64,000 nt of DNA from Parcubacteria group bacterium Greene0714_7. GTDB taxonomy: Bacteria > Patescibacteriota > Minisyncoccia > Phycocordibacterales > Phycocordibacteraceae. The notes under the pieces were generated by a model. The model was not told the DNA's origin and did no database searches. It saw only the letters and a program-made list of their open reading frames with translations. The position numbers and the translations under genes were made by a program. This document shows positions 2,706 through 59,727 of the stretch, piece by piece. The stretch is from positions 64,252-128,251 of the forward strand of contig VMHB01000001.1 of NCBI GenBank assembly GCA_007378985.1, given 5' to 3'. How positions within the stretch are numbered: the stretch's first letter is position 1; each line of letters begins with the position of its first letter.

Positions 2706-2998
2706 AGGGATTCGGTAACAGATAGTTTTACTTTGTAAGATTTCTTCAATTCTTTCGAGGGTTCGGTCACAAGTAAATTTCCTGACGGAAATTTCTCGCG
2801 ACCCTAGCTCGGCATTTTTGCCTTGTGAGGCGTAAACAAAAATATGCCTGCGCTTTTCGAATCCCTCACGTGAGCCAAATTGTTAGGGATTCGGTCACGG
2901 ATAATTTTAAAAAATAAAATTTCCGCGACCCCGACTCGCCGACAAGCGATCGCTTCGCTCGCCTTGTGTACCGCCTCCGTCTTTCGAATCCCTCACCG
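2706..2998. repeat. Tandem array of about 120-bp repeat units (starts near 2706, 2757, 2885), each beginning gagggattcggtcac and ending ctttcgaatccctcac, next to tRNA-Val
   Basis: Unit ends are inverted copies of each other and copy the T-loop of the adjacent tRNA-Val (gagggattcgaa). Inside each unit: a hairpin (aaatttcctgacggaaattt) and a conserved core ttctcgcgacccNagctcggcatttttgccttgtgaggc. Related copies lie at 9397-9480, 10140-10240 (inverted), 31870-31940 and 50690-50800. Confidence 0.6.
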
Positions 2999-3050
2999 CA
3001 TTACAAACAATAAGTGCCGAACGCGAAAGCGTTCGGCATCTTTTGTTTTG

Positions 3051-3123
3051 TGCGCGGTGAGGGATTCGAACCCCCGACATCGTCAACGTCAATGACGCGC
3101 TCTACCAACTGAGCTAACCGCGC
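3051..3123 (-). tRNA. tRNA-Val (anticodon GAC)
   Basis: Reverse complement folds as a cloverleaf: acceptor GCGCGGT, D-arm GCTCAGTTGGTAGAGC, anticodon stem CGTCA/TGACG with loop TTGACGT, T-arm GGGGGTTCGAATCCCTC. No encoded CCA. Confidence 0.85.
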
Positions 3124-4345: not shown

Positions 4346-5188
4346 TTACTTCGGAAACACGTCTGTAAGTTCATCGGAGTGGTAAAAGAGTGCGCCGAGC
4401 TCCCCAAACAAATATGCTTTTCCGCCTGTGGTAATTTCGCTACCTGCTGTTATTGGGGAAGGGTTTGGCTTTGAGGCTTGAAAACCAATATTAAACAGCG
4501 TTACTACTGTGCCAGGATTTTGTGTAATGTCGTATCCGCCCTGTCTCCACTGTGCTTCCACCTCCTTTATGAAGAGGGCTGTATAGAGGTATGAGAAGTA
4601 GTGGTCTTTTGGGTCGGTGAGCCGTCTGTAGAGTTCGGCGTCATGTTCTACGCCCTCAGGGTAGGCAACAAGCGCTCGCATATTTGGCCCTGGGAAAAAT
4701 GGCGAGGTGACATTTTGAGTATTGAGTTCAATGGCATTTGCCGTTTCTTGTTTGATGCCCGAAACACCTAAGGAAAACTGTGAAAGTGAGCCTAGTATTT
4801 TTAATGGCTCAAAGTAGCTTTTAAATACTTCTCGCTCCGAAGTAAAGAAGCGGATTTGCTCGGGAATGACCACAGAAGCAATCATGCGTTTTGAAACGCC
4901 CGTTTCTGTCGAAACTCTCGTGATTATTTTCTCGTCTTTGCGGAGTCCTTCTCTGACGGTATCCCATTCAGGAGTTTGGTTCCACACACACTCTTCTTCT
5001 GCAGTGTTGAGGCAGGGGACACTATTTGGATTTCTCTCAAAAAACTGATTTCTCTCTTTAATAGTTCCGCGTACATTCAAGAGTCCAAATTGCATACCAA
5101 TGAAGACAAGTGTAAAAGCTACTCCGATGAGGGCGAAGATTCCCACAATGGAGAAAAGCATTGCCTTAAATATTTTTTTATTGTGCAT
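4346..5188 (-). CDS. Hypothetical protein with a single N-terminal TM anchor
   Basis: N-terminal hydrophobic helix (FKAMLFSIVGIFALIGVAFTLVFIGM), about 250-aa extracytoplasmic body, no recognised motifs. Confidence 0.45.
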   Translation of the reverse strand: MHNKKIFKAMLFSIVGIFALIGVAFTLVFIGMQFGLLNVRGTIKERNQFFERNPNSVPCLNTAEEECVWNQTPEWDTVREGLRKDEKIITRVSTETGVSKRMIASVVIPEQIRFFTSEREVFKSYFEPLKILGSLSQFSLGVSGIKQETANAIELNTQNVTSPFFPGPNMRALVAYPEGVEHDAELYRRLTDPKDHYFSYLYTALFIKEVEAQWRQGGYDITQNPGTVVTLFNIGFQASKPNPSPITAGSEITTGGKAYLFGELGALFYHSDELTDVFPK

Positions 5189-5296
5189 TGGTGAGAGTAG
5201 TCTACATCATCCTTTATAAAAAGCCTCCCTATTGGAGACTGGGTACAACTAGGAATCTTACACTTCACTCAGAAGTAGTTGTGGGTACCTTGCGGG

Positions 5297-5314
5297 ATAC
5301 CCCCTAGGGGGTAT
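5297..5314. promoter_or_regulatory. CsoR-type operator palindrome ATACCCCCTAGGGGGTAT, 12 nt upstream of the csoR start codon
   Basis: Perfect 7-4-7 inverted repeat with G/C-tract half-sites typical of CsoR boxes; it sits in front of csoR-copA. Confidence 0.6.
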
Positions 5315-5326
5315 ATACTATTACTC

Positions 5327-5602
5327 ATGAAATACATGGAAGATAAAAATAAAGGCACCATTATTCGTCGTCTCAAACTTATCGAAGGTCAGGTTCGAGG
5401 TCTACAAAAGATGATCGAGAATGACACGTATTGTATTGATGTAATCACGCAAACGTCTGCGGTTAAACAGGGACTTTCTAATGTTGAGGATTTACTGCTC
5501 GAAAACCATCTTGGTGGGTGCATCTTGAATCAGGTAAAGTCTGGACAGACTGAAAAGGCAAAGCAGGAAATATTAAAAGTGTATAAACTAAAGAGAAAAT
5601 AA
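5327..5602 (+). CDS. csoR: Copper-sensing transcriptional repressor, CsoR/RcnR family
   Basis: R..GQ..G...M...D.YC.DV..Q..AV signature (YCIDVITQTSAV); about 90 aa; directly upstream of copA. Confidence 0.75.
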   Translation: MKYMEDKNKGTIIRRLKLIEGQVRGLQKMIENDTYCIDVITQTSAVKQGLSNVEDLLLENHLGGCILNQVKSGQTEKAKQEILKVYKLKRK

Positions 5603-5605
5603 TGT

Positions 5606-7900
5606 ATGCACACACAAACGTATAGAGTAAAAGGAATGCATTGTGCTTCGTGCTCCTCGACCATCGAGAAGACTTTTAAGAAAGTGGATGGGGTACATTC
5701 TGCGGAAGTTAATTACGGTACAGAAAAAGCAAAGATTTCTTTTGATCCCTCAAAAACCAATCCTCACGATCTTTCTAAACACATTGAGCCACTTGGATAT
5801 TCATTAGAAGTTCCAACGAGTGCAAATGAAATGGGTATGTCGGAGAGTGAACATGCAGCTCATTTAGGTTTGAATCAGTCTAAAAAAGAGAAATTAGCGG
5901 AGGTGGCTGATATGCGAACAAAAGTGCTTTCCGCCATTCCTATCGCCGTCTTCGCCGCTTTCGTCATGGGTTGGGATATTCTTGCCGAGTACAGTATCAC
6001 TCCGGCGATGAGCTATACACTCAAAGAATTTTTCCATCACTTACTCCCAATACTTGCGACCTATATTTTGTTTGTGGTTGGTACGCCATACTTACTTGGT
6101 TTTTATAGATTCTTACGCTATGGAAAGGCGAACATGGATACCCTGATTGGTATTGGTACCACCGCCGCCTTTCTATACAGCTTTGCAGTTACGGCTTTCG
6201 AGGAAACACTCAGGCCTTTTATCAATGTTGACTATCAATACTACGATGTGACCATTGTAGTTATTACCTTTATTGCACTTGGTAAATATTTGGAAGCTCG
6301 ATCGAAAATAAAGACGGGGGATGCTATCGAGAAGCTTCTCAATCTTCAAGCTAAAACCGCTTTGGTCATTCGAGATGGAAAGGAAATAGAGATCTCGGTC
6401 AACGACGTTACACATGGAGATCTAATTATCGTTAAACCTGGTGCGAAAATTCCGGTTGATGGCACTATCACAGAAGGTTCATCCTTTATTGATGAGTCGA
6501 TGGTCACGGGAGAGCCGATGCCAGTAGGGAAGAAGATCGGAGACAGCGTTGTCTCCGGAACCATAAACACAAGCGGATCATTCACGTTTAAAGCAACAAA
6601 GGTTGGGTCAGAAACATTGCTCGCCCAGATCATAACAATGGTCGAGGATGCCCAAGGGAGCAAAGCCCCTATTCAGGCACTTGCAGACAAAATTTCGTCA
6701 ATCTTTGTGCCCATTGTTCTTGTGATTGCGTTTCTTACGCTTGGTGCATGGCTCATTGTAGGGTCACAGTATTTGGGTTTCTCTCAGGCACTTTCATTTG
6801 GCCTTGTGTCGTTTGTTGGAATTCTCGTCATTGCGTGTCCGTGTGCTCTAGGACTTGCAACTCCCACAGCAATTATTGTCGGAGTCGGTAAAGGTGCAAA
6901 AGAGGGCATTCTTATCAAAGACGCCTCTACTCTTGAAAAACTTCACAAGGTGGACACGGTTATTGTGGACAAAACTGGCACTATTACTGTCGGCAAACCA
7001 ACTCTGGTTGATATTCAAAATCTCTCAAGCGTAACGGATGATGAACTGGTATCGATTCTTGCTTCGCTTGAGAAAAAATCAGAGCATCCGATTGCACGTG
7101 CGATTGTGAACTACGCTGAGGAGAAAAATATTCCTGTATCCACTATTTCAAATTTTGAAGGAATACAGGGTAAGGGTCTCAGGGGAGTAGTGAACGGCAC
7201 CGAATACTTTGTAGGTAATGCAAAACTTGTGGGCGATCTTAAGGTTTCATTTGAAGCTAGTACGCTGAACAAGTTTACTTCAGAAGGGAAGACACCCGTT
7301 ATTCTCACGACAAAAGAAAAAGTCTTAGGTTTTGTTATGGTGGCAGATGAAATAAAACCCGAATCAAAACAAGCTGTTGCCAATCTTCACAAACTGGGAG
7401 TTAAGGTGGTTATGCTTACGGGAGACGATGAAAAAGCTGCGAGATACATGGCATCGATGGTTGGCATCGATGATGTGGTTGCTCACGTGTTGCCACAAGA
7501 CAAATTGGCGAAAATAAAAGAATTGCAATCGCAAGGTCGAGTGGTTGCTATGGCGGGTGATGGCGTGAATGATGCACCAGCACTTGCCCAAGCAGATGTG
7601 GGCATCGCCATGGGCACGGGTACTGATGTAGCAATAGAGTCAGCGGGCATTACGCTTCTTGGCGGTGATATTTCAAAACTGGTGAAAGCCATTAGGCTTT
7701 CCAAGATCACCATGCGGGGGATCAAACAGAATCTCTTTTGGGCCTTCATCTACAACATTATCGGTATTCCTCTTGCTGCGGGAGTCTTATACCCAGTCTT
7801 CGGATGGCTCTTAAATCCAGTGTTTGCAGGATTTGCTATGGCGATGTCGTCGGTGTCGGTAGTGTCGAATTCATTACGAATCAAAGGTAAAAAATTATAA
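5606..7900 (+). CDS. copA: Copper-translocating P1B-type ATPase
   Basis: N-terminal HMA domain (GMHCASC), CPC transmembrane metal site, DKTGT phosphorylation motif, GDGVNDAP hinge. Confidence 0.9.
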
Positions 7901-7909
7901 ATAATTTTT

Positions 7910-8923
7910 ATGAACACACATACCTACACATTCCACGTCTCTGGCACGCATTGTCCGTCATGTAAAATCTTCATTGAGGACACCTTGAATGAGCATAGTG
8001 GTATTGGACAAACGTACGTTGATTTGAAGAGTAAAACTGTCTCCCTTGAGACTACTCTTGATGAAAGTCAGCATACGCTGGCCAAGATACTAACCGAGAA
8101 AATAAAACAGAATGGGTACTCACTTTCTGTTGAGAAGGAAGCTAAAGAGAAAAAAGACACTGGCGTCATTTGGCAGGCACTTCCGATTGGACTCGCATTT
8201 CTTGCACTTTTCTTTATTGTGCAAAAATCAGGAATCCTCAATTTTGGTTTGGGCGGAACGGTGACCCCTGTCACTAGTTTCATAATTGGGCTCGTTGCGT
8301 CGGTGTCGAGTTGTCTTGCGGTTGTTGGGGGGCTTGTTCTTTCTCTCTCAGCAACAGTGTCTCAGGACACAGTAAGTGACGTAAAACCAATGATGCTTTT
8401 CCATGGCGGAAGACTAATCAGCTTCGCAATACTTGGCGGTGTCCTGGGTGCAATAGGCAGTGCAATTGGTATCAGCTTTACGGTGACTGCAATTCTTGGA
8501 ATTATTGCATCAACAGTGATGATTCTGCTCGGACTTAATCTTGTGGGGATTTTTGAGAAGAATATAATTGCACTCCCTTCTGGGGTTTTTAGCTTGTTCC
8601 GCAAGATAGAGCATAAGACGGTGGCCCCATTTTTGATTGGTGTCGGTACTTTTTTCCTACCGTGCGGATTTACTCAGGCAATGCAGGTAGCAGCGCTTTC
8701 CAGTGGTTCGTTTCTTTCGGGATTTATGATCATGACTGCATTTGCTCTTGGCACATTGCCAATGCTTGCACTTCTGTCGTTCGGTTCCGCCTCATTTGCG
8801 GGGTCAAAACACGCTCCACTTTTCTTTAAGTCTGCGGGTGTGTTGGTTATAGGTCTTGGGGTTTTCGCACTGCTCGCAGGGCTTGCTGGGCTCGGTATTA
8901 TCAATCCGTTATTTAACATATAA
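7910..8923 (+). CDS. HMA-domain protein fused to a polytopic membrane domain (DsbD/CcdA/TauE-like permease fold)
   Basis: N-terminal GTHCPSC heavy-metal-associated motif followed by about 8 glycine-rich TM helices; third gene of the cop operon. Confidence 0.5.
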   Translation: MNTHTYTFHVSGTHCPSCKIFIEDTLNEHSGIGQTYVDLKSKTVSLETTLDESQHTLAKILTEKIKQNGYSLSVEKEAKEKKDTGVIWQALPIGLAFLALFFIVQKSGILNFGLGGTVTPVTSFIIGLVASVSSCLAVVGGLVLSLSATVSQDTVSDVKPMMLFHGGRLISFAILGGVLGAIGSAIGISFTVTAILGIIASTVMILLGLNLVGIFEKNIIALPSGVFSLFRKIEHKTVAPFLIGVGTFFLPCGFTQAMQVAALSSGSFLSGFMIMTAFALGTLPMLALLSFGSASFAGSKHAPLFFKSAGVLVIGLGVFALLAGLAGLGIINPLFNI

Positions 8924-8940
8924 TCTTTATTAAGTACTGT

Positions 8941-9339
8941 ATGCAAAAGAACATACTCATATCCATTGCCATCAGCATTGCTCTCATTGGGGGAACTCTC
9001 TACTTCGTTTCTACGAGGCCAGCGTCTTCAAACGGTGAAGTTGTAGGGTCGCAGAATATCGAAATTAGAGATGGCATACAGTACGTGACTATCACTGCAA
9101 AGGGTGGCTATTCTCCGTATGTTACAGAAATCAAAGGAGGGTTGCCTACCAAGTTGATTGTGAAGACAAATGGAACATATGATTGCTCGGCATCGCTTGT
9201 AGTTCGCTCTGTCGGTTTCCAAAGCATATTACAACCAACAGGTGAAGAAGTTATAGATTTAGGTACTCCAAAATCTGGCGATACAGTGCAAGGCGTGTGC
9301 GGGATGGGAATGTATAGTTTTCAGCTAAAAGTTAGCTAA
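8941..9339 (+). CDS. Membrane-anchored small extracytoplasmic protein, possibly cupredoxin-like, cop-operon associated
   Basis: N-terminal TM anchor; C-terminal Cys/Met cluster (VQGVCGMGMY); position after copA. The fold assignment is speculative. Confidence 0.35.
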   Translation: MQKNILISIAISIALIGGTLYFVSTRPASSNGEVVGSQNIEIRDGIQYVTITAKGGYSPYVTEIKGGLPTKLIVKTNGTYDCSASLVVRSVGFQSILQPTGEEVIDLGTPKSGDTVQGVCGMGMYSFQLKVS

Positions 9340-9483
9340 CGATAAAACGGCAACAATAGTGGTGGTGAGAATCGTTTTGTGACTTAAGTGGGAATCGGTC
9401 ACAGATGTTTCAGATATTTTTCTGACAGAAATGGGAAAGGGAAATGGGGACAGTCACGATTTTCTCGATAAAAATATTCAGTG

Positions 9484-9568
9484 CGGAGGCGGTGAGATTC
9501 GAACTCACGATACCTTGCGGTATGCCGGTTTTCGAAACCGGTGGAATGAACCACTATCCGACGCCTCC
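9484..9568 (-). tRNA. tRNA-Ser (anticodon CGA)
   Basis: Reverse complement: anticodon stem-loop CCGGT-TTCGAAA-ACCGG, long variable arm, T-arm GTGAGTTCGAATCTCAC, acceptor GGAGGCG/CGCCTCC. Confidence 0.75.
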
Positions 9569-9625
9569 CGAAGATAGGTATCCTATCAGTTTAATCGTTT
9601 CGTTTCCACCGTAAAATTTATTTCA

Positions 9626-9910
9626 TTATTCTAATGTTCTGCAGAATTTGAGAACGTTTTTCCCCCGCTCGGTGAGTGCATGTCGCACCGAGGCACCTTC
9701 GTGGCGCTTCATGAGGAGCCCAGCGATAGAAAGTTTCCGCAGATGTTCTGAAAGCGTGCGGTAATCCGCAGAGAGGTGTTCGGCAAGTTCCATGACTGAA
9801 AGTTCAGAGTGTTTTTCCAGAGTATCCATTATTTGAATGCGCCAGTGACTTCCAGCTCCTTTCAGTATTCGTTCAAGATCTTGATATCGCTTCTTATCCA
9901 TTGGGTACAT
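9626..9910 (-). CDS. ArsR/SmtB-family metalloregulatory transcriptional repressor
   Basis: Winged-HTH MELAEHLSADYRTLSEHLRKLSIAGLL; 94 aa. Confidence 0.7.
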   Translation of the reverse strand: MYPMDKKRYQDLERILKGAGSHWRIQIMDTLEKHSELSVMELAEHLSADYRTLSEHLRKLSIAGLLMKRHEGASVRHALTERGKNVLKFCRTLE

Positions 9911-9948
9911 AATACCATAGTTCTGCAGAACTATGGTATTATGTACCC
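9903..9948. promoter_or_regulatory. 46-bp perfect palindrome gggtacataataccatagttctgcagaactatggtattatgtaccc spanning the arsR start codon
   Basis: The left half reverse-complements exactly to the right half; the arsR ATG (9910-9908) and the first codon lie inside the left arm. A partial copy gttctgcagaa recurs at 9636-9647. Confidence 0.6.
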
Positions 9949-9981
9949 ACAGAAAGAAAAATCGGCTATACTAGCGCGTAC

Positions 9982-10053
9982 GGCCCCATCGTCTAACGGT
10001 TAGGACACAAGCTTTTCAAGCTTGGAACCCGGGTTCGATTCCCGGTGGGGTCA
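9982..10053 (+). tRNA. tRNA-Glu (anticodon TTC)
   Basis: Acceptor GGCCCCA; anticodon stem-loop CAAGC-TTTTCAA-GCTTG; T-arm CGGGTTCGATTCCCG. Confidence 0.8.
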
Positions 10054-10088
10054 TGATTACAAAAAAGCCTGCAACGCAGGCACTTTTT

Positions 10089-10440
10089 GTTCATGACCCC
10101 AAGCACGAGAATAATTTCTCGTGCGTCCGGGAATCGAATGGCACAGGCATATTTTTGTTTGTGCCTCACAAGGCAAAAATGCCGAGCCGGGGTCGCGAGA
10201 AATTTCTGTCAGGAAATTTACTTGTGACCGGTTTCCCGGTGGGGTCACAAAGTCAAAAACATGCCGACTGCTCGGCATTTTTTACTTTGTGACAGCCGGA
10301 GCCATGTCGCTTGCGACGGGCGAGGCGGGGTCGAGCGCACTTAGTATTTTGTGAGCCTTCGGAGCAAAATACTTAGTGACGGGTGACCACAAAGAAAAAA
10401 CACGCTAGTGAGCCGTGATCGATTCCCGGTGGGGTTCGAA
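10089..10440. repeat. Composite non-coding region downstream of tRNA-Glu: inverted copies of the tRNA 3' end (10091-10102, 10125-10136), an inverted about 100-bp repeat unit (10140-10240), direct copies of the tRNA 3' end (10210-10228, 10412-10430) and a conserved hairpin element (10285-10395)
   Basis: The string cgattcccggtggggt of tRNA-Glu recurs twice downstream. 10190-10232 is the reverse complement of 2761-2800. 10293-10395 matches 32345-32450 almost base for base. Confidence 0.6.
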
Positions 10441-11225: not shown

Positions 11226-11864
11226 ATGATAGACTCACTACCCACAATGAATTCAACCGCTCTTACTAATGCCCTGAAGTATCTCCGAAAGGACGTACAT
11301 TTAGGAGATGTAGTGAAAAAGAATCCGAAGCCGGATTTTAAGCCTGCACGTGATGTATATGCTGCGCTGGTGCGTTCTATTGTGTATCAGCAACTCTCTG
11401 GAAAAGCTGCTGGAACAATTCTGAAACGATTTCTTGCGCTGTTTCCAGATACTGGATATCCCAAACCAGAAATTGTTTTAAAAATGAGTGTTGCAAAAAT
11501 GAGAGGTGCTGGACTTTCGGGGCAGAAGACTGCATATATAAAAGATCTTTCGGCGAAATTCTTAGACGGCACAATAGAGCCAAAAAAATTTAAAGTGATG
11601 ACTGACGAAGAGATACGTCAGCACTTAATTGCCGTTAAGGGTATAGGGAGGTGGAGCGCTGACATGTTTTTAATGTCTGGGTTAAATAGGCTCGATGTAT
11701 TGCCAACTGGGGACTTAGGTATTCGTAAAGGCTTTCAAAAGCTTTTTAAAATGAAAACATTGCCTGACGCAAAGAAAATGGAGCGTCTTGCTGAGCCGTG
11801 GCGCCCCTACCGCACCATTGCTTCTTGGTACTTATGGCGCCTAGCCGATGAGGATAAACGCTAG
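11226..11864 (+). CDS. HhH-GPD superfamily DNA glycosylase (AlkA-like 3-methyladenine DNA glycosylase II)
   Basis: Helix-hairpin-helix plus Gly/Pro-rich loop and catalytic Asp (VKGIGRWSADMFLMSGLNRLDVLPTGDLG). Confidence 0.7.
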   Translation: MIDSLPTMNSTALTNALKYLRKDVHLGDVVKKNPKPDFKPARDVYAALVRSIVYQQLSGKAAGTILKRFLALFPDTGYPKPEIVLKMSVAKMRGAGLSGQKTAYIKDLSAKFLDGTIEPKKFKVMTDEEIRQHLIAVKGIGRWSADMFLMSGLNRLDVLPTGDLGIRKGFQKLFKMKTLPDAKKMERLAEPWRPYRTIASWYLWRLADEDKR

Positions 11865-11911
11865 TTTAGTACTCCGACGCTTCATTAAAGTAAAAAGATA
11901 ATTTGAAATAC

Positions 11912-11955
11912 CCTGTATAGTATAATTTAACGACCGTTAGATTATACTATACAGG
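11912..11955. promoter_or_regulatory. Palindrome B, copy 1: cctgtatagtataat-ttaacgaccgttag-attatactatacagg
   Basis: 15-bp perfect inverted arms that each contain a TATAAT-like hexamer; related copies at 46059-46100 and 51107-51148. Confidence 0.5.
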
Positions 11956-12009
11956 ATGGAGAGTAATTCTAAAGATTTTAGGAGAGGAATGGTTTACCAA
12001 GGTCGGACC

Positions 12010-12045
12010 TTTGTATTTTAAGATACCCCTAATTCGCACGAATTA
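12010..12045. promoter_or_regulatory. Palindrome A, copy 1: aagatacccctaattcgcacgaattaggggtatctt
   Basis: 17-bp perfect arms; the outer half-sites ATACCCC/GGGGTAT match the CsoR-operator half-sites at 5297-5314. A second copy lies at 45981-46014. Confidence 0.5.
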
Positions 12046-12105
12046 GGGGTATCTTAATTAAAAATTATTTAGGTATCGTGATGTGGCATGAATCAGTGGT
12101 ATATG

Positions 12106-12167
12106 AAAAGGACATTGAAGTGATTTGATATACAAAATCACTTCAATGTCCTTTTTTCTTTTCCCTA
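12106..12167. terminator. Bidirectional intrinsic terminator between the convergent alkA-like gene and ahcY
   Basis: About 20-bp perfect stem (ggacattgaagtgattt...aaatcacttcaatgtcc) flanked by an A-tract and a T-tract. Confidence 0.7.
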
Positions 12168-12190
12168 AACCCTAACCACTAATCACTAGC

Positions 12191-13510
12191 TCAGGTTCCT
12201 TCTTCCCACGAACTCAAATAGTGTTTTTGTTCTTCGGTGAGGGTATCAACGTAGATGCCCATAGAAGCGAGTTTTAAGTTAGCGACACGGTTTTCTATTT
12301 CTGGATCAATTTCATACACGCCAGCTTTTAGTGTTGCTTTATTGGCAACAACCCACGATGAAGCAAGTGCTTGTGTTGCAAAGCTCATATCCATAACGGA
12401 TGCGGGATGACCTTCAGCGGCTGCGAGGTTTACTAAGCGTCCTTCGCCAATAACATAGAGTCTTTTACCGCCTACGAGGTATTCATCAACATTTTTGCGC
12501 ACATCTTTTGTCACTTTTTCAGCCATTGCTTCAAGTGCTTTCAGATTTATTTCCACATCAAAGTGACCTGAATTGCAGAGAATAGCTCCGTCTTTCATGG
12601 CAGGGAAGTGTGTTTTGTCGATGACATTGATGTCCCCTGTGAGTGTGCAGAAGATGTCGCCAATTTTAGCGGCCTCTTTCATGGGCATAACCTCAAACCC
12701 GTCCATAACGGCTTCAAGAGCCTTAATAGAATCCACTTCAGTAACTATAGTGCGTGCTCCCATACCACGAGCGCGCATGGCAAATCCTCGTCCGCACCAG
12801 CCGTATCCTCCAACCACAACTACTTTGCCGGCGATGAGGGCGTCAGTTGCACGAATGATACCGTCCAAGGTTGATTGGCCAGTACCGTAGCGATTGTCAA
12901 AAAGATTTTTTGTTTTTGCATCGTTCACGGCAACAACAGGTATTTTTAGTGCACCATCTTTTGCCATTGCACGAAGGCGGATGACTCCTGTGGTTGTCTC
13001 CTCCATGCTTCCCATAATTTGTGTTGCTTTCTCAGGGTGATCGCGGTGAATGGTAGTTATGAGGTCTGCCCCGTCGTCCATGGTGATAACAGGGTTGTGT
13101 GCAATAGCGGCTTCAATGTGTGAGAAGAATTTTTCTTTATCTTCAGCGCGAATGGCATACACGGGGATGCCGTAGTCGACAACTAAGCTCGCTGCGACAT
13201 CGTCTTGTGTTGAAAGGGGATTGGAGGCTACTAGGAGCACATTAGCGCCACCAGCTTTTAGTGTACGCATGAGGTTTGCGGTTTCAGCGGTGACATGGAG
13301 GCATGCTGAAAAATTCATATCTTTAAACGGGAGTTCTTTTTCAAATTGTGCACGCACATCACGAAGTACCGGCATGTCGCGTTCTGCCCATTCGATTCTT
13401 TTCTTTCCAAGAGGTGCGAGAGCTATGTCTTTAATATCGTATTCCATCCCGTTGTGAAGTTTGGCGTCATTTCCTGCAGGGTTTTTATTAGAGTTTGTTG
13501 AGATATCCAT
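12191..13510 (-). CDS. ahcY: Adenosylhomocysteinase (S-adenosyl-L-homocysteine hydrolase)
   Basis: 439 aa; NAD-binding GYGWCGRG; SAHH-typical N-terminal region. Confidence 0.9.
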
Positions 13511-14515: not shown

Positions 14516-14651
14516 ATAAAGAAAGGGGTTAGCTTCTAGGTGCTAGGTTCTAGCTTTCTGAAAATTGAAAAGCTAGCACCTAGTTCCTAGTACCTAAAAC
14601 CTATCCCAGAGTTTACCTCGTGAGCTGAAAAAATAAAAGAAATCGAAGAAC
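14516..14651. repeat. Heptamer-periodic imperfect hairpin element between trxB and the pfkB-kinase start
   Basis: Reverse complement reads ...ctaggaactaggtgctagcttttcaattttcagaaagctagaacctagcacctagaagctaacccc...ATG; homologous to 21236-21336. Confidence 0.55.
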
Positions 14652-18565: not shown

Positions 18566-18576
18566 TGTAATAGGGG

Positions 18577-18610
18577 ATAGGCGACGCTTCGTCGGATCCG
18601 AAGGGATCAT
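18577..18610. promoter_or_regulatory. Conserved two-hairpin motif, copy 1 (ataggcgacgcttcgtcggatccgaagggatcat) in the ftsA leader
   Basis: Near-identical copies at 50161-50195 and 59728-59759. Hairpins are cgacg-ctt-cgtcg and gatcc-gaag-ggatc. Confidence 0.55.
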
Positions 18611-21235: not shown

Positions 21236-21336
21236 ACTTGTTGAAGGTTCTAGGTGCTAGGGACTAGGTGTTAGCTTTTAATTTTCAGAAAGCTAGAAGC
21301 TAGAAGCTAGAAGCTAGAAGCTAGCACCTAATCTCA
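21236..21336. repeat. Heptamer-periodic hairpin element ending in (GCTAGAA)x4 immediately before the pth start codon
   Basis: ggttctaggtgctagggactaggtgttagc-ttttaattttcagaa-agctagaagctagaagctagaagctagaagctagcacctaatctca|ATG. The left arm reverse-complements to the right-arm repeats. Confidence 0.6.
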
Positions 21337-21924
21337 ATGTACATCATCGTTGGACTTGGTAACCCTGGAGAAAAATACGAGCATACACGCCACAATGCGG
21401 GACGTATGGCACTTGATTGGTTTAAAAAGAAGTATGATTTTTCTGATTGGGAGTTTAATAAAAAATTAAACGCACACACTGCAGAAGGGAAGGTGGGAAA
21501 AGCGAAGGCACTCTTGGTTATTCCGGATACTTTCATGAATAATTCCGGTAAAGCTGTCTTGGGGTTGGTGAAATCAAAAAAAGCCGCATCAGAATTATTG
21601 GTTGTATACGATGATCTCGATATCCCGTTCGGTACCTTTAAGATTTCATACGGAAGAAGTTCTGGTGGACACAACGGTCTTGAGTCAATTATCCGTGCAG
21701 TGAAAACGAAAGATTTTCCACGCCTGCGTTTTGGTGTTTCGCCAGCAACACCATCTGGAAAATTAAAGAAGCCAATGGGAGAAAAAAAAGTTCTCGATTT
21801 TCTTTTAGGGGATTTTTCGAAAAAAGAAAAAGAAGTGATGCCAAAGATTTTGAAGAAGGTAGGGGAGGCGATTGAGATTTCGGTTACGGAAGGTTATCAA
21901 ATAGCGATGAATAAATCTAACTAA
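21337..21924 (+). CDS. pth: Peptidyl-tRNA hydrolase
   Basis: MYIIVGLGNPGEKYEHTRHNAGRMALD N-terminal signature. Confidence 0.9.
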   Translation: MYIIVGLGNPGEKYEHTRHNAGRMALDWFKKKYDFSDWEFNKKLNAHTAEGKVGKAKALLVIPDTFMNNSGKAVLGLVKSKKAASELLVVYDDLDIPFGTFKISYGRSSGGHNGLESIIRAVKTKDFPRLRFGVSPATPSGKLKKPMGEKKVLDFLLGDFSKKEKEVMPKILKKVGEAIEISVTEGYQIAMNKSN

Positions 21925-23294: not shown

Positions 23295-23350
23295 TTAATC
23301 AGTAATCGATTGGGCGCTTCTAGGTTCCAGCTTCTAGGGGCTAGGTTCTA
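23295..23350. repeat. Heptamer-repeat leader (reverse-complement cctagaa cctagcc cctagaa gctggaa cctagaa) directly upstream of the rpsA ATG
   Basis: Read directly; same family as 21236-21336 and 14516-14651. Confidence 0.55.
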
Positions 23351-23491
23351 GGAAGGATTAACACCAACCAAAGTGATATAAAAAAGCCCTAGGGCTTTGT
23401 CGGGAATTTATACCATATATATCATCCGAGAACAAACTGATTGACACTGCTTTCTTAAAGTTCTAGGTTGTGTGAACTAATATATAATTTT

Positions 23492-27449: not shown

Positions 27450-27520
27450 TTGCCAGCTGCCAGGTTTCAGGTGCCAGCTTTCAGCCTCAAACTTCGAGCT
27501 GTCAGGTTCCAGCTTAAATT
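27450..27520. repeat. Heptamer-periodic repeat (gccagct gccaggt ttcaggt gccagct ttcagcc...) downstream of gyrA
   Basis: Period-7 pattern read directly; a related stretch at 27590-27630 precedes the methyltransferase start. Confidence 0.5.
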
Positions 27521-29673: not shown

Positions 29674-29744
29674 GAATTAGGGTATATAGTGTTTAGGCGA
29701 TGCCTCATTGGATCCGTAGGGATCATAAGAAAACAAAAAACAAT

Positions 29745-33939: not shown

Positions 33940-34076
33940 TTTGCCTTGTCTCTTGCAGACTCAAGACAAACAAAAACATCGCTCCGGACTTCGAGTCCCA
34001 CACGCAAGCGTCGCAGGGCGCTTGCTCCTGGGCACCATAAAATAAAGTCGCACGGATGCGCGACTAACATTTTTTA
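33940..34076. repeat. tRNA-Leu(TAA) trailer: an inverted copy of the T-arm (ggacttcgagtcccacac) and a 16-bp inverted repeat that pairs with the tRNA 3' end (cctgggcaccataaaa / ttttatggtgcccagg) enclosing a small hairpin
   Basis: Read directly. Confidence 0.55.
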
Positions 34077-34162
34077 TGGTGCCCAGGGTGGGACTCGAAC
34101 CCACATTCCTTACGGAACTCGATCTTAAGTCGAGCGTGTCTACCAATTTCACCACCCGGGCG
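34077..34162 (-). tRNA. tRNA-Leu (anticodon TAA), CCA encoded
   Basis: Reverse complement: acceptor GCCCGGG/CCTGGGC, anticodon stem-loop CTCGA-CTTAAGA-TCGAG, long variable arm, T-arm GGGTTCGAGTCCCAC, then ACCA. Confidence 0.8.
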
Positions 34163-38064: not shown

Positions 38065-38127
38065 TGCACATTATTCTCTTGCTGTTTACCCCTAAACCCT
38101 ATACCCTAAACACTAACCCCTTCCCAT
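38065..38127. repeat. Heptamer-repeat leader ccctaaa ccctata ccctaaa cactaac ccc abutting the ATG at 38128
   Basis: Read directly; same family as the leaders of serS, relA and the hisS-like gene. Confidence 0.5.
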
Positions 38128-38967: not shown

Positions 38968-39079
38968 CATTAGAAGCCTTTAGGTTTCAGCTGTCAGCCT
39001 TCCGAGAGGAGTTTGTATTTGTTCTGTCTATAAGCTAAAACCTGAAACCTAAAACCTGCCTTTCTGGTATAATAGACGT
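38968..39079. promoter_or_regulatory. Heptamer-repeat region plus an extended -10 (tggtataat, 39066-39074) ending 5 nt before the clpB ATG; a leaderless clpB transcript is possible
   Basis: gctaaaa cctgaaa cctaaaa cctgcc...tggtataatagacgtATG read directly. Confidence 0.4.
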
Positions 39080-41821: not shown

Positions 41822-41907
41822 GCGTCGGTACTCAAGTGGTCAACGAGGGGAGACTGTAAATCTCCTGACTTCGGTCTTCGTTGGTTCGAATCCAACCCGG
41901 CGCACCA
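41822..41907 (+). tRNA. tRNA-Tyr (anticodon GTA), CCA encoded
   Basis: Acceptor GCGTCGG/CCGGCGC, anticodon stem-loop GGAGA-CTGTAAA-TCTCC, long variable arm, T-arm TTGGTTCGAATCCAAC. Preceded by a clpB terminator hairpin at 41793-41822. Confidence 0.8.
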
Positions 41908-42125
41908 TGGGTTGGATTCGAACCGCGGGCCGCAACGACTGGGAAGGAGTGAAGGTCTCGAGCTCAGCAGAGCGAGAGGCGAATCCAACCCGAGGATCGC
42001 TAAAATTTCCGTCAGGAGATTTATCTGTGTCCGCACAATCGAAGAGCGACCATAGGTTTCGAGCGTAAGACACTTTGTCTCCCTTTGAGGGTCAAACGCG
42101 AGAGGCGAATCCAATCCGCCAACAC
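41908..42125. repeat. tRNA-Tyr trailer with three partial copies of its T-arm (ggttggattcgaacc; gaggcgaatccaacccgagg; gaggcgaatccaatccgcc)
   Basis: Read directly. Confidence 0.5.
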
Positions 42126-44786: not shown

Positions 44787-45878
44787 CTAACTAATATTTC
44801 TTTTTTTGAGTAGAGTTTTGACCGCTTTGTGTAACAGCCAGCTTAATCCCAACAGAAGTGGTATGTATAGTGCCGTGGCTAGCCATGCAGGCAGATTCTG
44901 GTAGAGAATATCGTAGCGTGACATGAGTGGCCAATGAATAAGATAGAGTTCATAGGAATAAATCCCCAAGAGATACAGAAGGCCAACACGAAAAGGCTTA
45001 AGAATAAAAAGAATGAGAAGCAATGCAGTTAAAAGGAGGCTTATGTACTGCTGTGTTGGCGTGCCAACGCCAGAAAAATAAGCAAAGTAAGAAAATATTC
45101 CCGCAAGAAAAATCATAATTGGAATTAAAATCCACGTGCTCATTTTTTTGATGTGTCCTTCTACATATTCTCGCTCTTTTGGATATCTCTGATAGAGCCC
45201 AGCAACAGCTACGCCTAACGGAAACGCGATAGTGTGAAGTACATAGAGATGTTCAACATTTTTCAGTATTGAAAGATGTGCATACATAACGCCTTGCACC
45301 GCGCCATATATCAAGAGTGCTGACAATAGCGGTCTTTGTTTAAAGAATAGAATGGGGAATATTAGGTAGAAAAATAGTATGAAAGTGAGATACCAAAGAG
45401 GAGAGTTGATGTCGGTAAAGAGGTTTGCATGAGGGAAGAAGCCAACAAATGATTGCAGAATATAACTCCACGAGTAGGAATTATTCAGTAGTAGGAAGTC
45501 AGCGACAAAAAACACTGAGAGGACTATCCAGAATGGAACATACAGTTTCGGTAGGTGACGAAGATAAAATGCTTTCGGTAGAAGCTTATTTTTTAGAGCA
45601 GATACTGCAAGTCCGAAGCCAGAGAGAAAAAGAAAAAGGTCTACTCCTACGCCTGCGAAAATTGATAAAGGGAAAAGGAATCGATGATCGCTCACCAAAA
45701 AATATCCAATGTGCGCCAAGATGATTGCAAGCATTGCAAACCCCTTGAGCTCTTGCGAAAGCATTGGAGGCAGAAGTTCAGCACTCTCTTTTTTCTTCGA
45801 TGAAAACAATAGTCCTACAAAAAGTACTATCGCGAAGATGTACGTTGAAGAAACCGAATTTAAAATATCTATAGGCAT
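44787..45878 (-). CDS. Acyltransferase family 3 integral membrane protein (OafA/OpgC-like)
   Basis: About 10 TM helices; conserved His in helix 1 (LAIILAHIGYF) typical of AT3 acyltransferases. Confidence 0.65.
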   Translation of the reverse strand: MPIDILNSVSSTYIFAIVLFVGLLFSSKKKESAELLPPMLSQELKGFAMLAIILAHIGYFLVSDHRFLFPLSIFAGVGVDLFLFLSGFGLAVSALKNKLLPKAFYLRHLPKLYVPFWIVLSVFFVADFLLLNNSYSWSYILQSFVGFFPHANLFTDINSPLWYLTFILFFYLIFPILFFKQRPLLSALLIYGAVQGVMYAHLSILKNVEHLYVLHTIAFPLGVAVAGLYQRYPKEREYVEGHIKKMSTWILIPIMIFLAGIFSYFAYFSGVGTPTQQYISLLLTALLLILFILKPFRVGLLYLLGIYSYELYLIHWPLMSRYDILYQNLPAWLATALYIPLLLGLSWLLHKAVKTLLKKRNIS

Positions 45879-45980
45879 CGATTACAATCCTAACATTTCC
45901 ATACACTGACAGTCTTGGCTTTGTAATTCGTAAAGAGCGCACAATTACCCCGCGTTCCTACTTTCTCCTATTCTATTTTC

Positions 45981-46014
45981 ATATACCCCTTATTCGTGCG
46001 AATAAGGGGTATAT
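45981..46014. promoter_or_regulatory. Palindrome A, copy 2 (atataccccttattcgtgcgaataaggggtatat)
   Basis: Same outer half-sites as copy 1. It sits in the divergent intergenic region between the acyltransferase gene and the 46171 ORF. Confidence 0.5.
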
Positions 46015-46058
46015 GAAAATACAGAGGTCGGATCTTTGTATTTTTACTTCACTTCCAT

Positions 46059-46100
46059 CGATATAGTATAATCTAACGATCGTTAAATTAAACTATATCG
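46059..46100. promoter_or_regulatory. Palindrome B, copy 2 (diverged: cgatatagtataatctaacgatcgttaaattaaactatatcg)
   Basis: Preceded by the small palindrome aaaatacagaggtcggatctttgtatttt (46021-46045). Confidence 0.45.
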
Positions 46101-46170
46101 TGATTTTAAGTCTGAAAGATGAAAAGAGGTTCTGTAGTATTTTTTGAAATGGGTGAGTTACACTGATTCT

Positions 46171-46440
46171 ATGACAGAAGATCGCATACAAAAATTAGAA
46201 AAGGAAGTACAGCTCATCCAAGCGCGAAACTTGAAGGTAGAAGCCGAAAAAGCTTGGGAAGTAAGCTGGTTTCGTATTCTCACTATTACTATCATTACCT
46301 ATGTTGTTGCGTGTTTCATTCTTGCGATCTTAGGGATCAGCAACTTCATATTCAACGCATTAGTACCAGCTGTTGGATACTTCCTCTCTACACAATCACT
46401 TCCGTTAGTAAAAAAGTGGTGGGTTCAGAATCATAAATAA
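46171..46440 (+). CDS. Hypothetical small membrane protein (coiled-coil N-terminus, two TM helices)
   Basis: ORF with clear TM helices. Confidence 0.35.
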   Translation: MTEDRIQKLEKEVQLIQARNLKVEAEKAWEVSWFRILTITIITYVVACFILAILGISNFIFNALVPAVGYFLSTQSLPLVKKWWVQNHK

Positions 46441-50146: not shown

Positions 50147-50160
50147 TGAGTGTTTTGGTG

Positions 50161-50195
50161 GATAGGCGACGCTTCGTCGGATCCGAAGGGATCAT
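50161..50195. promoter_or_regulatory. Conserved two-hairpin motif, copy 2, 14 nt upstream of the 5-FCL start
   Basis: gataggcgacgcttcgtcggatccgaagggatcat, identical to copy 1 at 18577-18610. Confidence 0.55.
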
Positions 50196-50674: not shown

Positions 50675-50863
50675 TTGCAAGTGCCGGAGGAGGGACTCGG
50701 TCAGGCGTTCTCTGTTTGTCGTCACAAACAGAGCCGCACGACCCTAGCTCACCTGTTTTTTCTGCTGAAAAAACATGGTTCCGCTTTTCGAGTCCCAACG
50801 TAATGTACGCAGGTGCATTACTCCTCGCGCAAAAGAAAATCGCACACATGTGCGATTACTTTG
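50675..50863. repeat. tRNA-Leu(CAA) trailer: a direct copy of the tRNA 3' end (gtgccggaggagggactcg, 50680-50698) starting a repeat unit, and an inverted T-arm copy (gcttttcgagtcccaacg, 50783-50800)
   Basis: Read directly. The unit core ccgcacgaccctagctc matches the cgcgacccNagctc core of the 2706-2998 units. Confidence 0.55.
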
Positions 50864-50944
50864 TGCCGGAGGAGGGACTCGAACCCTCATCCCTTGCGAG
50901 ACACGATTTTGAGTCGTGCGTGTATACCATTCCACCACTCCGGC
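50864..50944 (-). tRNA. tRNA-Leu (anticodon CAA)
   Basis: Reverse complement: acceptor GCCGGAG/CTCCGGC, anticodon stem-loop CACGA-CTCAAAA-TCGTG, long variable arm, T-arm GAGGGTTCGAGTCCCTC. Confidence 0.75.
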
Positions 50945-51106: not shown

Positions 51107-51148
51107 CTGTATAGTATAAATTAACGATCGTTAAATTATACTATACAG
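51107..51148. promoter_or_regulatory. Palindrome B, copy 3 (ctgtatagtataaattaacgatcgttaaattatactatacag), about 118 nt upstream of parB
   Basis: 42-bp near-perfect palindrome read directly. Confidence 0.5.
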
Positions 51149-51265
51149 GTAAAGAGTAGTAGAAAGTAGGTTGGACAGTTGAATTTTTTTGAATTTTCTC
51201 AATTTTTGAGAAACAGGAGGATTTTTTATCTCACGCTTCTTTTGTGTTCGTGTTACAATTTTCCC

Positions 51266-52228
51266 ATGTCACAGTTTCAAGGAGATGCAATTTTTTGGGT
51301 CGAGGTTGAAAAAATACGACCAAACCAATATCAACCACGTACCGAGTTCGATGAAGCAAAATTGAAAGATTTGGCAGGCTCTATTCGTCAGTACGGCGTC
51401 TTACAGCCACTTATGGTCACACGATACGAAGAGTCACGTGAAGATGGCGGACTTTCAACCTACTATGAACTCATCGCGGGGGAACGCCGGCTCCGTGCAT
51501 CAAAGCTTGCCGGCCTCTCTCAAGTGCCTGTCATTATTCGCTCCACTGAGGAACAAAGTCGAGTACGCTTAGAGCTCGCTATCATTGAAAACTTACAACG
51601 AGAAGATCTGAATGCCATTGACCGTGCACGTGCCTTTGATCGTTTGCAGAAGGAATTTAGTTTAAATAACTCAGAAATTGCTGTGAAGGTGGGGAAGAGT
51701 CGTGAGTATGTTTCAAACTCAATTCGCCTTCTTGCACTACCTGCTGAAATGCAACAGGCAGTTATTGGTGGTGCTATTTACGAAGGTCATGCGAGGGCTC
51801 TGCTCATGCTCTCCGACAGACCTGAAGAACAAAAGACTGTTTTTCGTGACATTATGATTCGCAAACTATCAGTGCGTGATGTTGAAAAAATTACGCGTGA
51901 GATTGCTGTGGAGAAAGCGCGAAAGCGCGACATTACTCCTCAAATAGAGGCACTTGAGCGAGCATTTGCAGAGTCACTCGGAACAAAAGTTGAAATAAAA
52001 GCACAAGAAAAAGGAGGAAAGCTTATTATTGATTTTTTCTCAACAGAAGATTTGGAAGGAATGCTCGCACATATAGAGCGCCGTGTTATCTCGCCTCAAG
52101 CAGAGAGCCCTATCTCAGAGGCTCAAGAACAAAGAAACGATATGGTAGATGTGCCTTCAACGCTCGCTTCTGTACCTCCGCCTCCTTCAAATGACGATGA
52201 CTTTTCATTGAAACACTTCTCTATCTAG
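51266..52228 (+). CDS. parB: ParB/Spo0J-family partition protein (no adjacent parA)
   Basis: ParB N-terminal box ELIAGERRLRASKLAGL and an HTH; long C-terminal extension. Two terminator-like hairpins at 52254-52297 and 52337-52362 follow. Confidence 0.8.
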   Translation: MSQFQGDAIFWVEVEKIRPNQYQPRTEFDEAKLKDLAGSIRQYGVLQPLMVTRYEESREDGGLSTYYELIAGERRLRASKLAGLSQVPVIIRSTEEQSRVRLELAIIENLQREDLNAIDRARAFDRLQKEFSLNNSEIAVKVGKSREYVSNSIRLLALPAEMQQAVIGGAIYEGHARALLMLSDRPEEQKTVFRDIMIRKLSVRDVEKITREIAVEKARKRDITPQIEALERAFAESLGTKVEIKAQEKGGKLIIDFFSTEDLEGMLAHIERRVISPQAESPISEAQEQRNDMVDVPSTLASVPPPPSNDDDFSLKHFSI

Positions 52229-52406
52229 TTTCTGCCTGCATAACAGAATAAATAAAATACCCCCCCAAGTGAAATCTTGAGGGGTATTTTATTTTTTAGG
52301 TGGGGGTGGTGATTTTATATATCAAATCACTTAAATCATGGAGAGCGGTAGCTCTCCATGTATATAAAAGCTCAACTTGAAATCCTTTGGAGTGGTCGGC
52401 GTAGAG

Positions 52407-57559: not shown

Positions 57560-57617
57560 TGTTTTGGATTTGTTCTCCTCTCTAAACGCTATCCCCTAAA
57601 CCCTAACCCTTATTCCC
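57560..57617. repeat. Heptamer-repeat leader ctctaaa cgctatc ccctaaa ccctaac ccttatt ccc|ATG abutting serS
   Basis: Read directly. Confidence 0.5.
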
Positions 57618-59715: not shown

Positions 59716-59727
59716 GGGTTAGGGTTT

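Follow-up and report, generated by a model that had tools for sequence, protein, structure and literature searches.

What are the three palindromes that lie side by side at positions 11,912 to 12,045 of a 64,000-nucleotide stretch of contig VMHB01000001.1, from Parcubacteria group bacterium Greene0714_7, and why do the same palindromes recur elsewhere in that stretch (hereafter the window)? Palindrome B is a 42-bp sequence with three copies in the window, palindrome A, with ATACCCC...GGGGTAT ends, has two, and a small third palindrome, C, stands beside A and B at both composites, as an initial annotation made from the letters alone had recognised. That annotation offered several candidates, among them binding sites for a global regulator, a parS-like site, a split CsoR operator and a small palindromic mobile element. 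The global-regulator reading is the best supported, with the amendment that two regulators are indicated, an ArsR/SmtB-family protein for A and a PaaX-family protein for B, neither of which had been named. We put at roughly 0.6 the probability that in the composite the operators of two distinct winged-helix repressors stand next to each other, the repressor of B being PaaX-like and that of A ArsR-like. What is observed directly in the genomes compared here is the existence and distribution of the repeat families, the covariation of their arms and their association with particular proteins. The Patescibacteria literature searched contains very little on gene regulation, and motifs B, A and C are not described in it.

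Palindrome B and a short PaaX-like protein

B follows the general 42-bp pattern CTG-TATAGTATAA-NN-TAACG-NN-CGTTA-NN-TTATACTATA-CAG, in which the arms TATAGTATAA and TTATACTATA are separated by 16 bp, giving a span of 36-42 bp. Both strands match the 36-nt core pattern at all three annotated window sites (Table 1), where shuffled sequences expect 0 matches, and the three sites therefore stand, copy 1 with the limits given in the table. The central sequence TTAACGATCGTTAA, first described as perfectly palindromic, is so in copy 3, but copies 1 and 2 read TTAACGACCGTTAG and CTAACGATCGTTAA. An exact TATAAT hexamer is indeed present on each strand, but the two point inward and are convergent rather than divergent as had been stated, and the outward-pointing -10-like hexamers are TATACT.

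A scan with the B half-pattern, using one genome per species, returned 51 loci, nearly all of them from three Paceibacterota/Patescibacteria metagenome-assembled genomes (MAGs; JAGOSG01, SCTS01 and JBBAAE01, below without their final digits), with the remainder in JAZJYZ01 and in two short contigs that carry other taxonomic assignments; none was found in viral contigs. The window is 92-98% identical to JAGOSG. The loci of the four related MAGs together with the window hold 62 copies of B, every one intergenic, with 35 in tandem, 11 in divergent and 11 in convergent contexts, gene contexts being taken from a simple open reading frame (ORF) caller. These copies form about 22 groups with similar flanks, indicating that most sites are orthologous between species, and the related MAGs hold at least 18-20 intergenic copies per genome. 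In JAGOSG they are spread over at least five contigs, nine of them on one 259-kb contig, and the majority of all copies lie 20-130 nt 3' of a stop codon. Genes that start toward B include those for what we take, by eye from their N-termini, to be L9, RecR, GltX, YchF, PheS, pyruvate kinase and an exonuclease, and the gene for ParB also starts toward it. For the window copies themselves, the B of the first composite (locus 1) has an ortholog in JAGOSG, SCTS and JBBAAE, that of the second (locus 2) lies 43, 43 and 93 nt 5' of the same 98-aa gene in those three genomes (mechanical ORF call), and copy 3 is orthologous in all four genomes and absent from more distant relatives.

The protein most closely tied to B is encoded by a 193-aa gene that, in JAGOSG, SCTS and JBBAAE, lies between two copies of B, one about 50 nt 5' of the start codon and the other 36-39 nt 3' of the stop, and that matches Pfam PaaX_M (PF20803), which represents the central, Cas2-like domain of PaaX (E = 6e-20). 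Five more distant homologs were fetched by protein sequence alone. The one in L180 (74% identity) has an exact B on both sides, while that in L181 (68%) is bracketed by two mutually inverted copies of a variant with identical outer arms TATAGTATAAAAT and a different, asymmetric centre, so that the outer arms are the retained part of B. The homologs in L182 (60%), L183 (54%) and L153 have their own 36-44 bp palindromes both 5' and 3' of the gene, and in L153 the 5' palindrome adjoins TGTATAAT, with the ATG 8 nt further on. The gene is bracketed in 8/8 loci (three close genomes and 5/5 distant homologs), and a palindrome that stands on both sides and changes as the protein diverges points to a cognate protein-site pair; B is most likely the cognate DNA site of this short PaaX-family protein. 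Among the small ORFs adjoining B no regulator other than the PaaX-like gene was recognised by eye, and the small ORFs that begin directly past B, of 21 aa in the window and of 60 aa in L045, were rejected as spurious, their reading frames through C differing on inspection.

The kinship with PaaX is seen in both structure and sequence. An AlphaFold model of the protein (pLDDT, a per-residue confidence score, 67; good for residues 60-190) retrieves E. coli PaaX (8A39) as the first Foldseek match (E = 1.3e-5, probability 1.0), followed by Cas2, and a profile search of PDB sequences likewise returns 8A39 first and Cas2 next. The protein has 189-193 aa and consists of an N-terminal hydrophobic helix, a winged helix-turn-helix (wHTH) and a Cas2-like dimerisation domain. 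PaaX is the repressor of the phenylacetate catabolon in E. coli and Pseudomonas. In E. coli the PaaX operator is TGATTC-N27-GAATCA, about 39 bp wide, the repressor acts by competing with RNA polymerase, and its Cas2-like domain serves dimerisation (PMC9493321). The Patescibacteria pair resembles this system in the combination of wHTH and Cas2-like central domain, in the very wide inverted repeat (36-42 bp for B) and in the presence of a site at the regulator's own gene, which suggests autoregulation. It differs in that the protein has about 190 aa rather than 316, lacks the C-terminal CoA-ligand domain of PaaX and carries the hydrophobic N-terminal helix, in that there are no paa genes and about 20 sites per 0.5-1 Mb genome stand before housekeeping genes, and in that B is a perfect palindrome conserved over its full length and brackets the gene on both sides. 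On the operator reading, B would have spread to its at least 18-20 intergenic positions per genome, before housekeeping genes and around the gene of its own regulator, and because its arms hold -10-like hexamers a bound dimer would be expected to occlude RNA polymerase.

Palindrome A and an ArsR-like protein

The core of A, ACCCCTwATTCG-NN-CGAATwAGGGGT, is an exact 12-2-12 inverted repeat, which is the standard layout of ArsR/SmtB operators (PMC8790569). Scanning metagenomes with the 12-2-12 pattern gave at least 120 stretches, with 103 unique sites among the matches listed, on many groundwater contigs of the candidate phyla radiation (CPR). When a profile was built from the small proteins neighbouring A, 27 strong ArsR-like genes (Pfam family HTH_5) were found at the A loci listed, and A adjoins 25 of these 27, lying up to 150 nt upstream in 17 cases and just past the stop codon in eight. 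The family, annotated in Patescibacteria as ArsR/SmtB, numbers over 1,300 clusters. Five homologs picked by protein alone all have an A-like palindrome upstream (at about 40-65 nt by our own count) and another directly after the stop (5/5), and in these relatives the inner core wATTCG-NN-CGAATw is constant and the outer part lineage-specific (ACCCC, TCTC, GGC or TATAC). Since 25/27 of the listed genes and all of the protein-picked homologs carry it, A is most likely the operator of an approximately 90-aa ArsR/SmtB-family repressor widespread in Patescibacteria.

Many gene starts in the window (for example 24053, 39080, 51266, 53939 on the minus strand and 5327) have a -10-like hexamer, often TGnTAnnnT, that ends 5-8 nt before the start codon, which suggests widespread leaderless transcription. 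At the listed A sites start codons cluster 8-14 nt after the core, a spacing that, taken with the leaderless geometry of a -10 hexamer, 5-8 nt and ATG, is consistent with A abutting the -10 box; A would then be a 12-2-12 operator that commonly adjoins the -10 box of leaderless promoters. Like the sites of SmtB, CzrA and AzuR (PMC8790569), A is an exact 12-2-12 repeat, and it stands in or beside the promoter of an approximately 90-aa HTH_5 gene and before other genes as well. It departs from those systems in that the CPR proteins have no obvious metal-binding motif (by eye, without motif analysis), that the targets range widely, over a Cys-rich protein of 550-600 aa, DnaX, tgt/queA and purine genes, that a perfect palindrome of up to 34-56 bp is formed, and that there is usually a second copy beyond the stop codon of the gene. 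Both families share one design: a conserved, presumptive contact core, symmetry beyond that core, frequent abutment of a -10 box and copies on both sides of the regulator gene.

A further palindrome in the window, a perfect 48-bp sequence at 9902-9949 (TGGGTACATAATACCATAGTTCTGCAGAACTATGGTATTATGTACCCA), covers the start of a distant ArsR-like gene (HTH_5; 9626-9910, minus strand) and faces tRNA-Glu; palindromes with a TTCTGCAGAA centre also occur in CPR contigs L094, L114 and L147. This palindrome and gene are probably a third regulator-operator pair. The same gene was the only hit when the B loci were searched with the ArsR profile.

The likeness that had originally linked A to CsoR is superficial and limited to its variable outer ends. 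The ATACCCC...GGGGTAT ends are indeed shared with the genuine box beside csoR and copA (Table 1), and also with a terminator-like hairpin at 52257-52287; A, however, has a 16-bp palindromic insert that is incompatible with the compact G/C-tract pseudo-palindrome found beside csoR or a copper-efflux gene, and its conserved part is this insert rather than the ends, whose ACCCC gives way to other sequence in relatives that retain the inner core. In the 25 listed and five protein-picked cases counted above, A is linked to a gene of the ArsR family, and never to csoR. The genuine box belongs to a copper island (about 5140-10230) with csoR, a copA P-type ATPase gene, an HMA-DsbD_2 protein and a weak, sub-threshold cupredoxin-like match, which also carries tRNA-Ser, the ArsR-like gene and tRNA-Glu; the island is missing at that position in the closest relatives, JAGOSG (L042) and SCTS (L018), and is hence variable.

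For B, the proposal of a parS-like centromere bound by ParB drew on a copy just upstream of parB, and that copy is present and orthologous in four genomes. It also gains something from the canonical 16-bp parS TGTTNCACGTGAAACA, which has 0 matches in the window at up to 3 mismatches and none in 1.29 Mb of related DNA. The B centre TTTAACGATCGTTAAA, however, does not align with the parS consensus, B is distributed over at least five contigs, and no copy lies up to 10 kb on either side of parB in three syntenic relatives, the ParB proteins of which are 80, 74 and 67% identical; nor did four syntenic loci reveal any shared palindrome near parB. The gene that B tracks is instead the PaaX-like one, and parB has a leaderless promoter of its own, so that B is not needed as its promoter. 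The TACAAT-N6-ATG arrangement of that promoter is kept in two of the three relatives (L172 and L174), the TG extension only in L174. Taken together, a split CsoR operator for A and a centromere for B are extremely improbable. Independently of B, it may be noted that parB is of the canonical chromosomal type (ParB_N, HTH_ParB and ParB_C) and that no canonical parS at up to 2-3 mismatches lies near it in the window or in loci L172-L174.

Table 1. Positions of the palindromes, their neighbours and related features in the window
Feature	Position	Strand	Sequence or structure	Context
CsoR-type box	5297-5314		ATACCCCCTAGGGGGTAT	Abuts -10 hexamer TATACT (5314-5319), then 7 nt and the ATG of csoR
csoR (PF02583)	5327-5602			Upstream of copA (5606-7900)
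HhH-GPD glycosylase gene	11226-11864	+		Left neighbour of locus 1
Palindrome B, copy 1	11913-11954		CTG-TATAGTATAA-TT-TAACG-AC-CGTTA-GA-TTATACTATA-CAG	48 nt 3' of HhH-GPD glycosylase stop
Purine-rich spacer	11955-11995	+	GATGGAGAGTAA...	Homologous to the post-B spacer of other B-C-A modules (comparison by eye)
Palindrome C, copy 1	11996-12014		ACCAAGGTC-G-GACCTTTGT	
Palindrome A, copy 1	12018-12057		19-nt perfect arms; 12-2-12 core ACCCCTAATTCG-CA-CGAATTAGGGGT at 12025-12050	
Ordinary bidirectional terminator hairpin	12106-12155		21-bp perfect stem, T-run on + strand	Between A copy 1 and gene 12191-13510; outside the repeat families
Palindrome A, copy 2	45974-46021		23-nt perfect arms; core 45985-46010	96 nt 5' of acyltransferase gene 44787-45878 (-)
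Palindrome C, copy 2	46021-46039		ACAGAGGTC-G-GATCTTTGT	
Palindrome B, copy 2	46059-46100		CGA...TCG subtype	43 nt 5' of 98-aa membrane-protein ORF 46144-46440 (+)
Palindrome B, copy 3	51107-51148			Between tRNA-Leu (50863-50944, -) and parB
parB leaderless promoter	51251-51268	+	TGtTACAAT (hexamer 51254-51259), 6 nt	ATG at 51266

Symmetry, spread and turnover of the sites

The arms of B change together. In the alignment of the 62 copies there are 151 double-changed cells against 85 +/- 7 in shuffles (0/500 shuffles as high), and the signal collapses in slid controls. When orthologs are compared by local alignment, both arms of the 42-mer have changed in 27 instances, where independent arms would give 4, and 19 of the 27 still pair; some of the pairs compared stem from merged groups of neighbouring sites and are not orthologs in the strict sense. 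The outer 8 nt have no such both-arm excess, and under a strict gap-free comparison the pairs are too few for compensation to be seen. Within each arm the conserved blocks (10 + 5 nt) are nearly invariant and the outer flanks diverge by about 30%, and these invariant blocks together with the paired changes suggest that both the sequence and the symmetry of B are constrained. Symmetry beyond the core is also a property of A, whose flank positions 4-6 outside the core are paired in 66-83 of the 103 listed sites against 34-40 expected, and whose perfect palindromes reach 56 bp. Template-switch mutation at quasipalindromes is a documented mechanism by which inverted repeats are perfected (PMC7202029), and the arm symmetry may have been kept by selection on a hairpin or produced by such mutation; the excess of long perfect inverted repeats in the window (ten with arms of at least 14 nt in 64 kb) fits either origin.

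A hairpin with B's flanks could act without any dedicated protein. The alignment consensus is AAAAA-NNN-(42-mer)-NNN-TTTT, with an A-run on the left or a T-run on the right at 44 copy-sides against 13 of the opposite polarity as a control, and such a perfect 21-24 bp stem, commonly placed shortly past a stop codon, would suit bidirectional intrinsic terminators or RNA-stabilising hairpins that are identical by descent, for B and perhaps for A. The normal terminators of this genome are likewise long, perfect, AT-rich hairpins, in one convergent intergenic region the B of JAGOSG takes the place of an ordinary hairpin in the unrelated sequence of the window and SCTS, and in tandem contexts G.U exceeds C.A on the sense strand (16 vs 7), a weak excess among copies that are not independent. 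Yet about a quarter of the site groups are flanked by divergent genes (in the window parB/tRNA-Leu and 98-aa gene/acyltransferase), with nothing there to terminate, the T-run follows the direction of the incoming gene only weakly (12/29 vs 7/30), and the core sequence is invariant while positions that matter for structure alone drift. By eye, the polarity of the A flanks is reversed (left side rich in T, right side rich in A), A shows no excess of G.U over C.A (20 vs 28), and the loop orientation of B (GGTC or GACC) has no bias with gene direction. A terminator scan of the three window loci called 0/3 B copies, and with Rfam the tRNAs alone reach the gathering score in the window, a permissive scan of 11860-12200 giving generic hairpin and microRNA noise. 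Known bidirectional terminators, including the uptake-sequence inverted repeats of Neisseria and Haemophilus, similarly embed a conserved sequence in a long hairpin flanked by A- and T-runs, but the B stem is AT-rich, copies also stand between divergent genes, and the copy number is far below that of an uptake signal. As this explanation further leaves the bracketing of PaaX-like and ArsR-like genes by palindromes that track the protein unaccounted for, we consider it distinctly improbable as the whole account. Under the two-repressor reading, the polarity of the A- and T-runs and the occurrence of B between convergent genes suggest an additional function as hairpin terminator or protein roadblock, and B and A, when transcribed or occupied, would probably also serve as bidirectional terminators or roadblocks in very short intergenic regions. 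Binding, repression and termination at B and A are in each case what we infer from these patterns.

About 20 near-identical copies confined to a narrow clade cannot be of independent origin, and copying must have spread them. The suggestion of a small palindromic mobile element is upheld to the extent that B has been copied, gained and lost and that the 42 bp alone is the repeated unit, with no larger mobile unit around a recently gained B; no transposase was found, nor were terminal inverted repeats, target-site duplications or other direct repeats flanking the 42-mer, as would mark a miniature inverted-repeat transposable element, and at one polymorphic site the whole intergenic region differs. 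Gain is illustrated by the convergent region of JAGOSG described above, while SCTS carries B1-370 nt-B2 (by alignment) and JBBAAE a B1-X-B2 arrangement (from site positions only) where sister genomes carry a single B.

Such behaviour recalls the repetitive extragenic palindromes (REP) and REPINs, inverted copies of which flank the gene of their REP-associated tyrosine transposase (RAYT), and B could be a selfish repeat of this kind, with the PaaX/Cas2-like protein as the enzyme that mobilises or cleaves it in trans and any regulatory or terminator effect secondary. Like those elements, B is a lineage-specific, dispersed intergenic palindrome with the arm covariation expected of a hairpin substrate; it is associated with indels and with small segments bounded by two copies, and its cognate palindromes bracket the gene in all eight loci. 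The Cas2-like domain moreover has an invariant Asp, D117, at the end of beta-1, which by our comparison corresponds to the catalytic Asp position of Cas2. On the other side, the same bracketing and the same extended, covarying palindromes surround the 90-aa ArsR-like gene, which has no catalytic domain, so that the design needs no enzyme. Most B sites are also positionally stable across four species, the copies number tens rather than hundreds, and no target-site duplication or insertion scar was seen. The flanked gene encodes a PaaX-like or ArsR-like DNA-binding protein rather than a Y1 HUH transposase (no whole-genome RAYT search was made), and B, a perfect AT-rich 42-mer, has neither the GTAG motif nor arrays like those of bacterial interspersed mosaic elements. 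Finally, the best structural and sequence match is to the repressor PaaX, in which the Cas2-like domain serves dimerisation (PMC9493321). On balance a selfish repeat served by this protein seems unlikely, and a fully RAYT-like system, in which the protein, with its Cas2-type nuclease fold, would nick or process the B hairpin and so copy B to new intergenic sites, quite unlikely.

C was found only within modules of constant order, B, purine-rich spacer, C and A, of which there are two in the window and others in L044, L045 (= L143) and L054; counted from the first base of B through the last of the A core, a module measures about 106-156 nt. Given this order, the module has an orientation, and its two occurrences in the window run in opposite directions. 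Both A copies reported by the initial annotation are present, but the first had been placed 8-12 nt too far to the left, so that its interval 12010-12045 cuts through the palindrome. B has a counterpart at both window loci in each of the other three genomes. A and C are absent from all three at locus 2, and at locus 1 their absence rests on inspection of the sequence and on the lack of A matches in the fetched loci; at the locus where SCTS and JBBAAE have a module, JAGOSG carries unrelated sequence, and it has no A at any of these three loci. As A and C come and go beside a B that is constantly present, the module behaves as a lineage-variable indel next to a stable site, and C may be an accessory hairpin inside a B-anchored module that is gained and lost between close relatives.

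The position of these changes raises the question of whether B is itself a recombination site of attC or dif type, or a 42-bp homology anchor bounding exchangeable cassettes. B copy 2 marks the exact point at which identity to JAGOSG drops from 96% to 84% (44787-46058 compared with L046, L003 and L006), a 362-aa gene beside B at locus 1 is present in some genomes and absent in others, the variable A-C module is always beside B, and the doubled sites of SCTS and JBBAAE contrast with single copies in their sisters. No associated recombinase was seen, however, most sites are single and stable, and breakpoints at a conserved 42-mer in fast-evolving intergenic DNA are what ordinary homologous recombination would be expected to produce. 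By our comparison, the GTTAAAT heptamer that B shares with dif/Xer sites has the wrong spacing, and B lacks the dif architecture. A dedicated recombination site is accordingly very improbable. As an observation in its own right, the acyltransferase (Acyl_transf_3) allele of the window and its upstream region, including A and C, look like an import by recombination with a breakpoint at B copy 2.

Several findings weigh against operators of two repressors. Neither regulator gene is in the window: there is no PaaX-like gene, and the only ArsR-like gene (9626-9910) is a distant one (E = 1e-9) with a different palindrome. The predicted hydrophobic N-terminal helix of the PaaX-like protein (pLDDT < 50 for residues 1-49) is unusual for a repressor. 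A position-specific profile of the 45-nt flanks of B, oriented by gene starts and ends, contained no -35 element or other motif beyond the A-run and the T-run, a sigma-70 promoter scan of the three window loci gave no consistent -35, and the parB promoter lies 105 nt downstream of B. Locus 1 lies, as first described, between convergent genes, 11226-11864 (+) and 12191-13510 (-), the latter a putative S-adenosylhomocysteine hydrolase gene as we take it by eye from its translation; the argument made from this that a promoter role is unlikely is fair as far as it goes, since no promoter is expected in the three or four site groups that are so placed, but these are only 3-4 of about 22. The roughly 30 invariant positions of B carry information well above the needs of an operator, a symmetric dimer alone is insufficient to explain covariation within a genome at non-conserved positions, and some 20 near-identical copies require a copying mechanism, of which none was found. 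It is, in addition, a hallmark of REP/RAYT systems that a gene stands between inverted copies of its own dispersed palindrome.

Other repeats and wider meaning

Long palindromes are not confined to B, A and C. Other multi-copy families of long perfect palindromes occur in unrelated CPR contigs (L073, L094, L108, L134, L150, L159/L164 and L135), with ATTCTAATGTTCT-NN-AGAACATTAGAAT, TGTTATGATGTACTAGTACATCATAACA and GGGATAGCGCTATCCC as examples, and such long, perfect, operator-like sequences may be general in the CPR. The window also holds a 45-nt repeat in four copies (18566-18610, 29682-29726, 50151-50195 and 59715-59759; 73-91% identical, ..TAGGCGAyGCyTCrTyGGATCCGwAGGGATCAT), three of which lie exactly at same-strand gene junctions and each of which has the hairpins CGATG-CTT-CATCG and GATCC-GAAG-GGATC. 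Low-complexity repeats with a 7-nt period (CTAGAAG/CTAGGTG, AGCTTTC/AGCTGTC and CCCTAAA) lie in intergenic DNA just past gene ends (14521-14605, 21245-21338, 23315-23351, 27455-27512, 38975-39059, 12163-12188, 38090-38115 and 57580-57619), and form imperfect inverted repeats wherever they occur on both strands. Inverted repeats are further found at four tRNA genes (2983-3070, 50821-50874, 34027-34087 and 41883-41924), one arm being the tRNA's own 3' end for tRNA-Val, tRNA-Leu(caa) and tRNA-Leu(taa), and, for tRNA-Tyr, one arm covering the 3' portion and the other straddling the tRNA end. A 28-nt fragment resembling a T-arm follows five minus-strand tRNAs at a distance of 66-185 nt from their 3' ends (2838, 31907, 33972, 34232 and 50769). 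These tRNA-end repeats may be terminators that borrow the tRNA end, or products of template switching.

The locus raises the more general questions of how near-identical 42-bp sites come to be spread through a genome and whether their symmetry is selected, as in a terminator or roadblock, or results from template-switch mutation in repair-poor genomes. Were the REP/RAYT-like view of B to prove true, a portable, repressible, bidirectional promoter or terminator would have been distributed through a minimal genome, and CPR regulons would be built by mobile perfect-palindrome operators instead of by the point-mutational birth of sites. If the assignments favoured here are true, Patescibacteria would gain two testable regulator-operator pairs, namely a clade-specific PaaX-like regulon of about 20 sites before housekeeping genes and the gene for ParB, and an ArsR-like regulon that is phylum-wide. 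Both would follow a single design rule, in which long perfect palindromic operators abut leaderless -10 boxes, bracket the gene of their regulator and remain symmetric beyond the conserved core.

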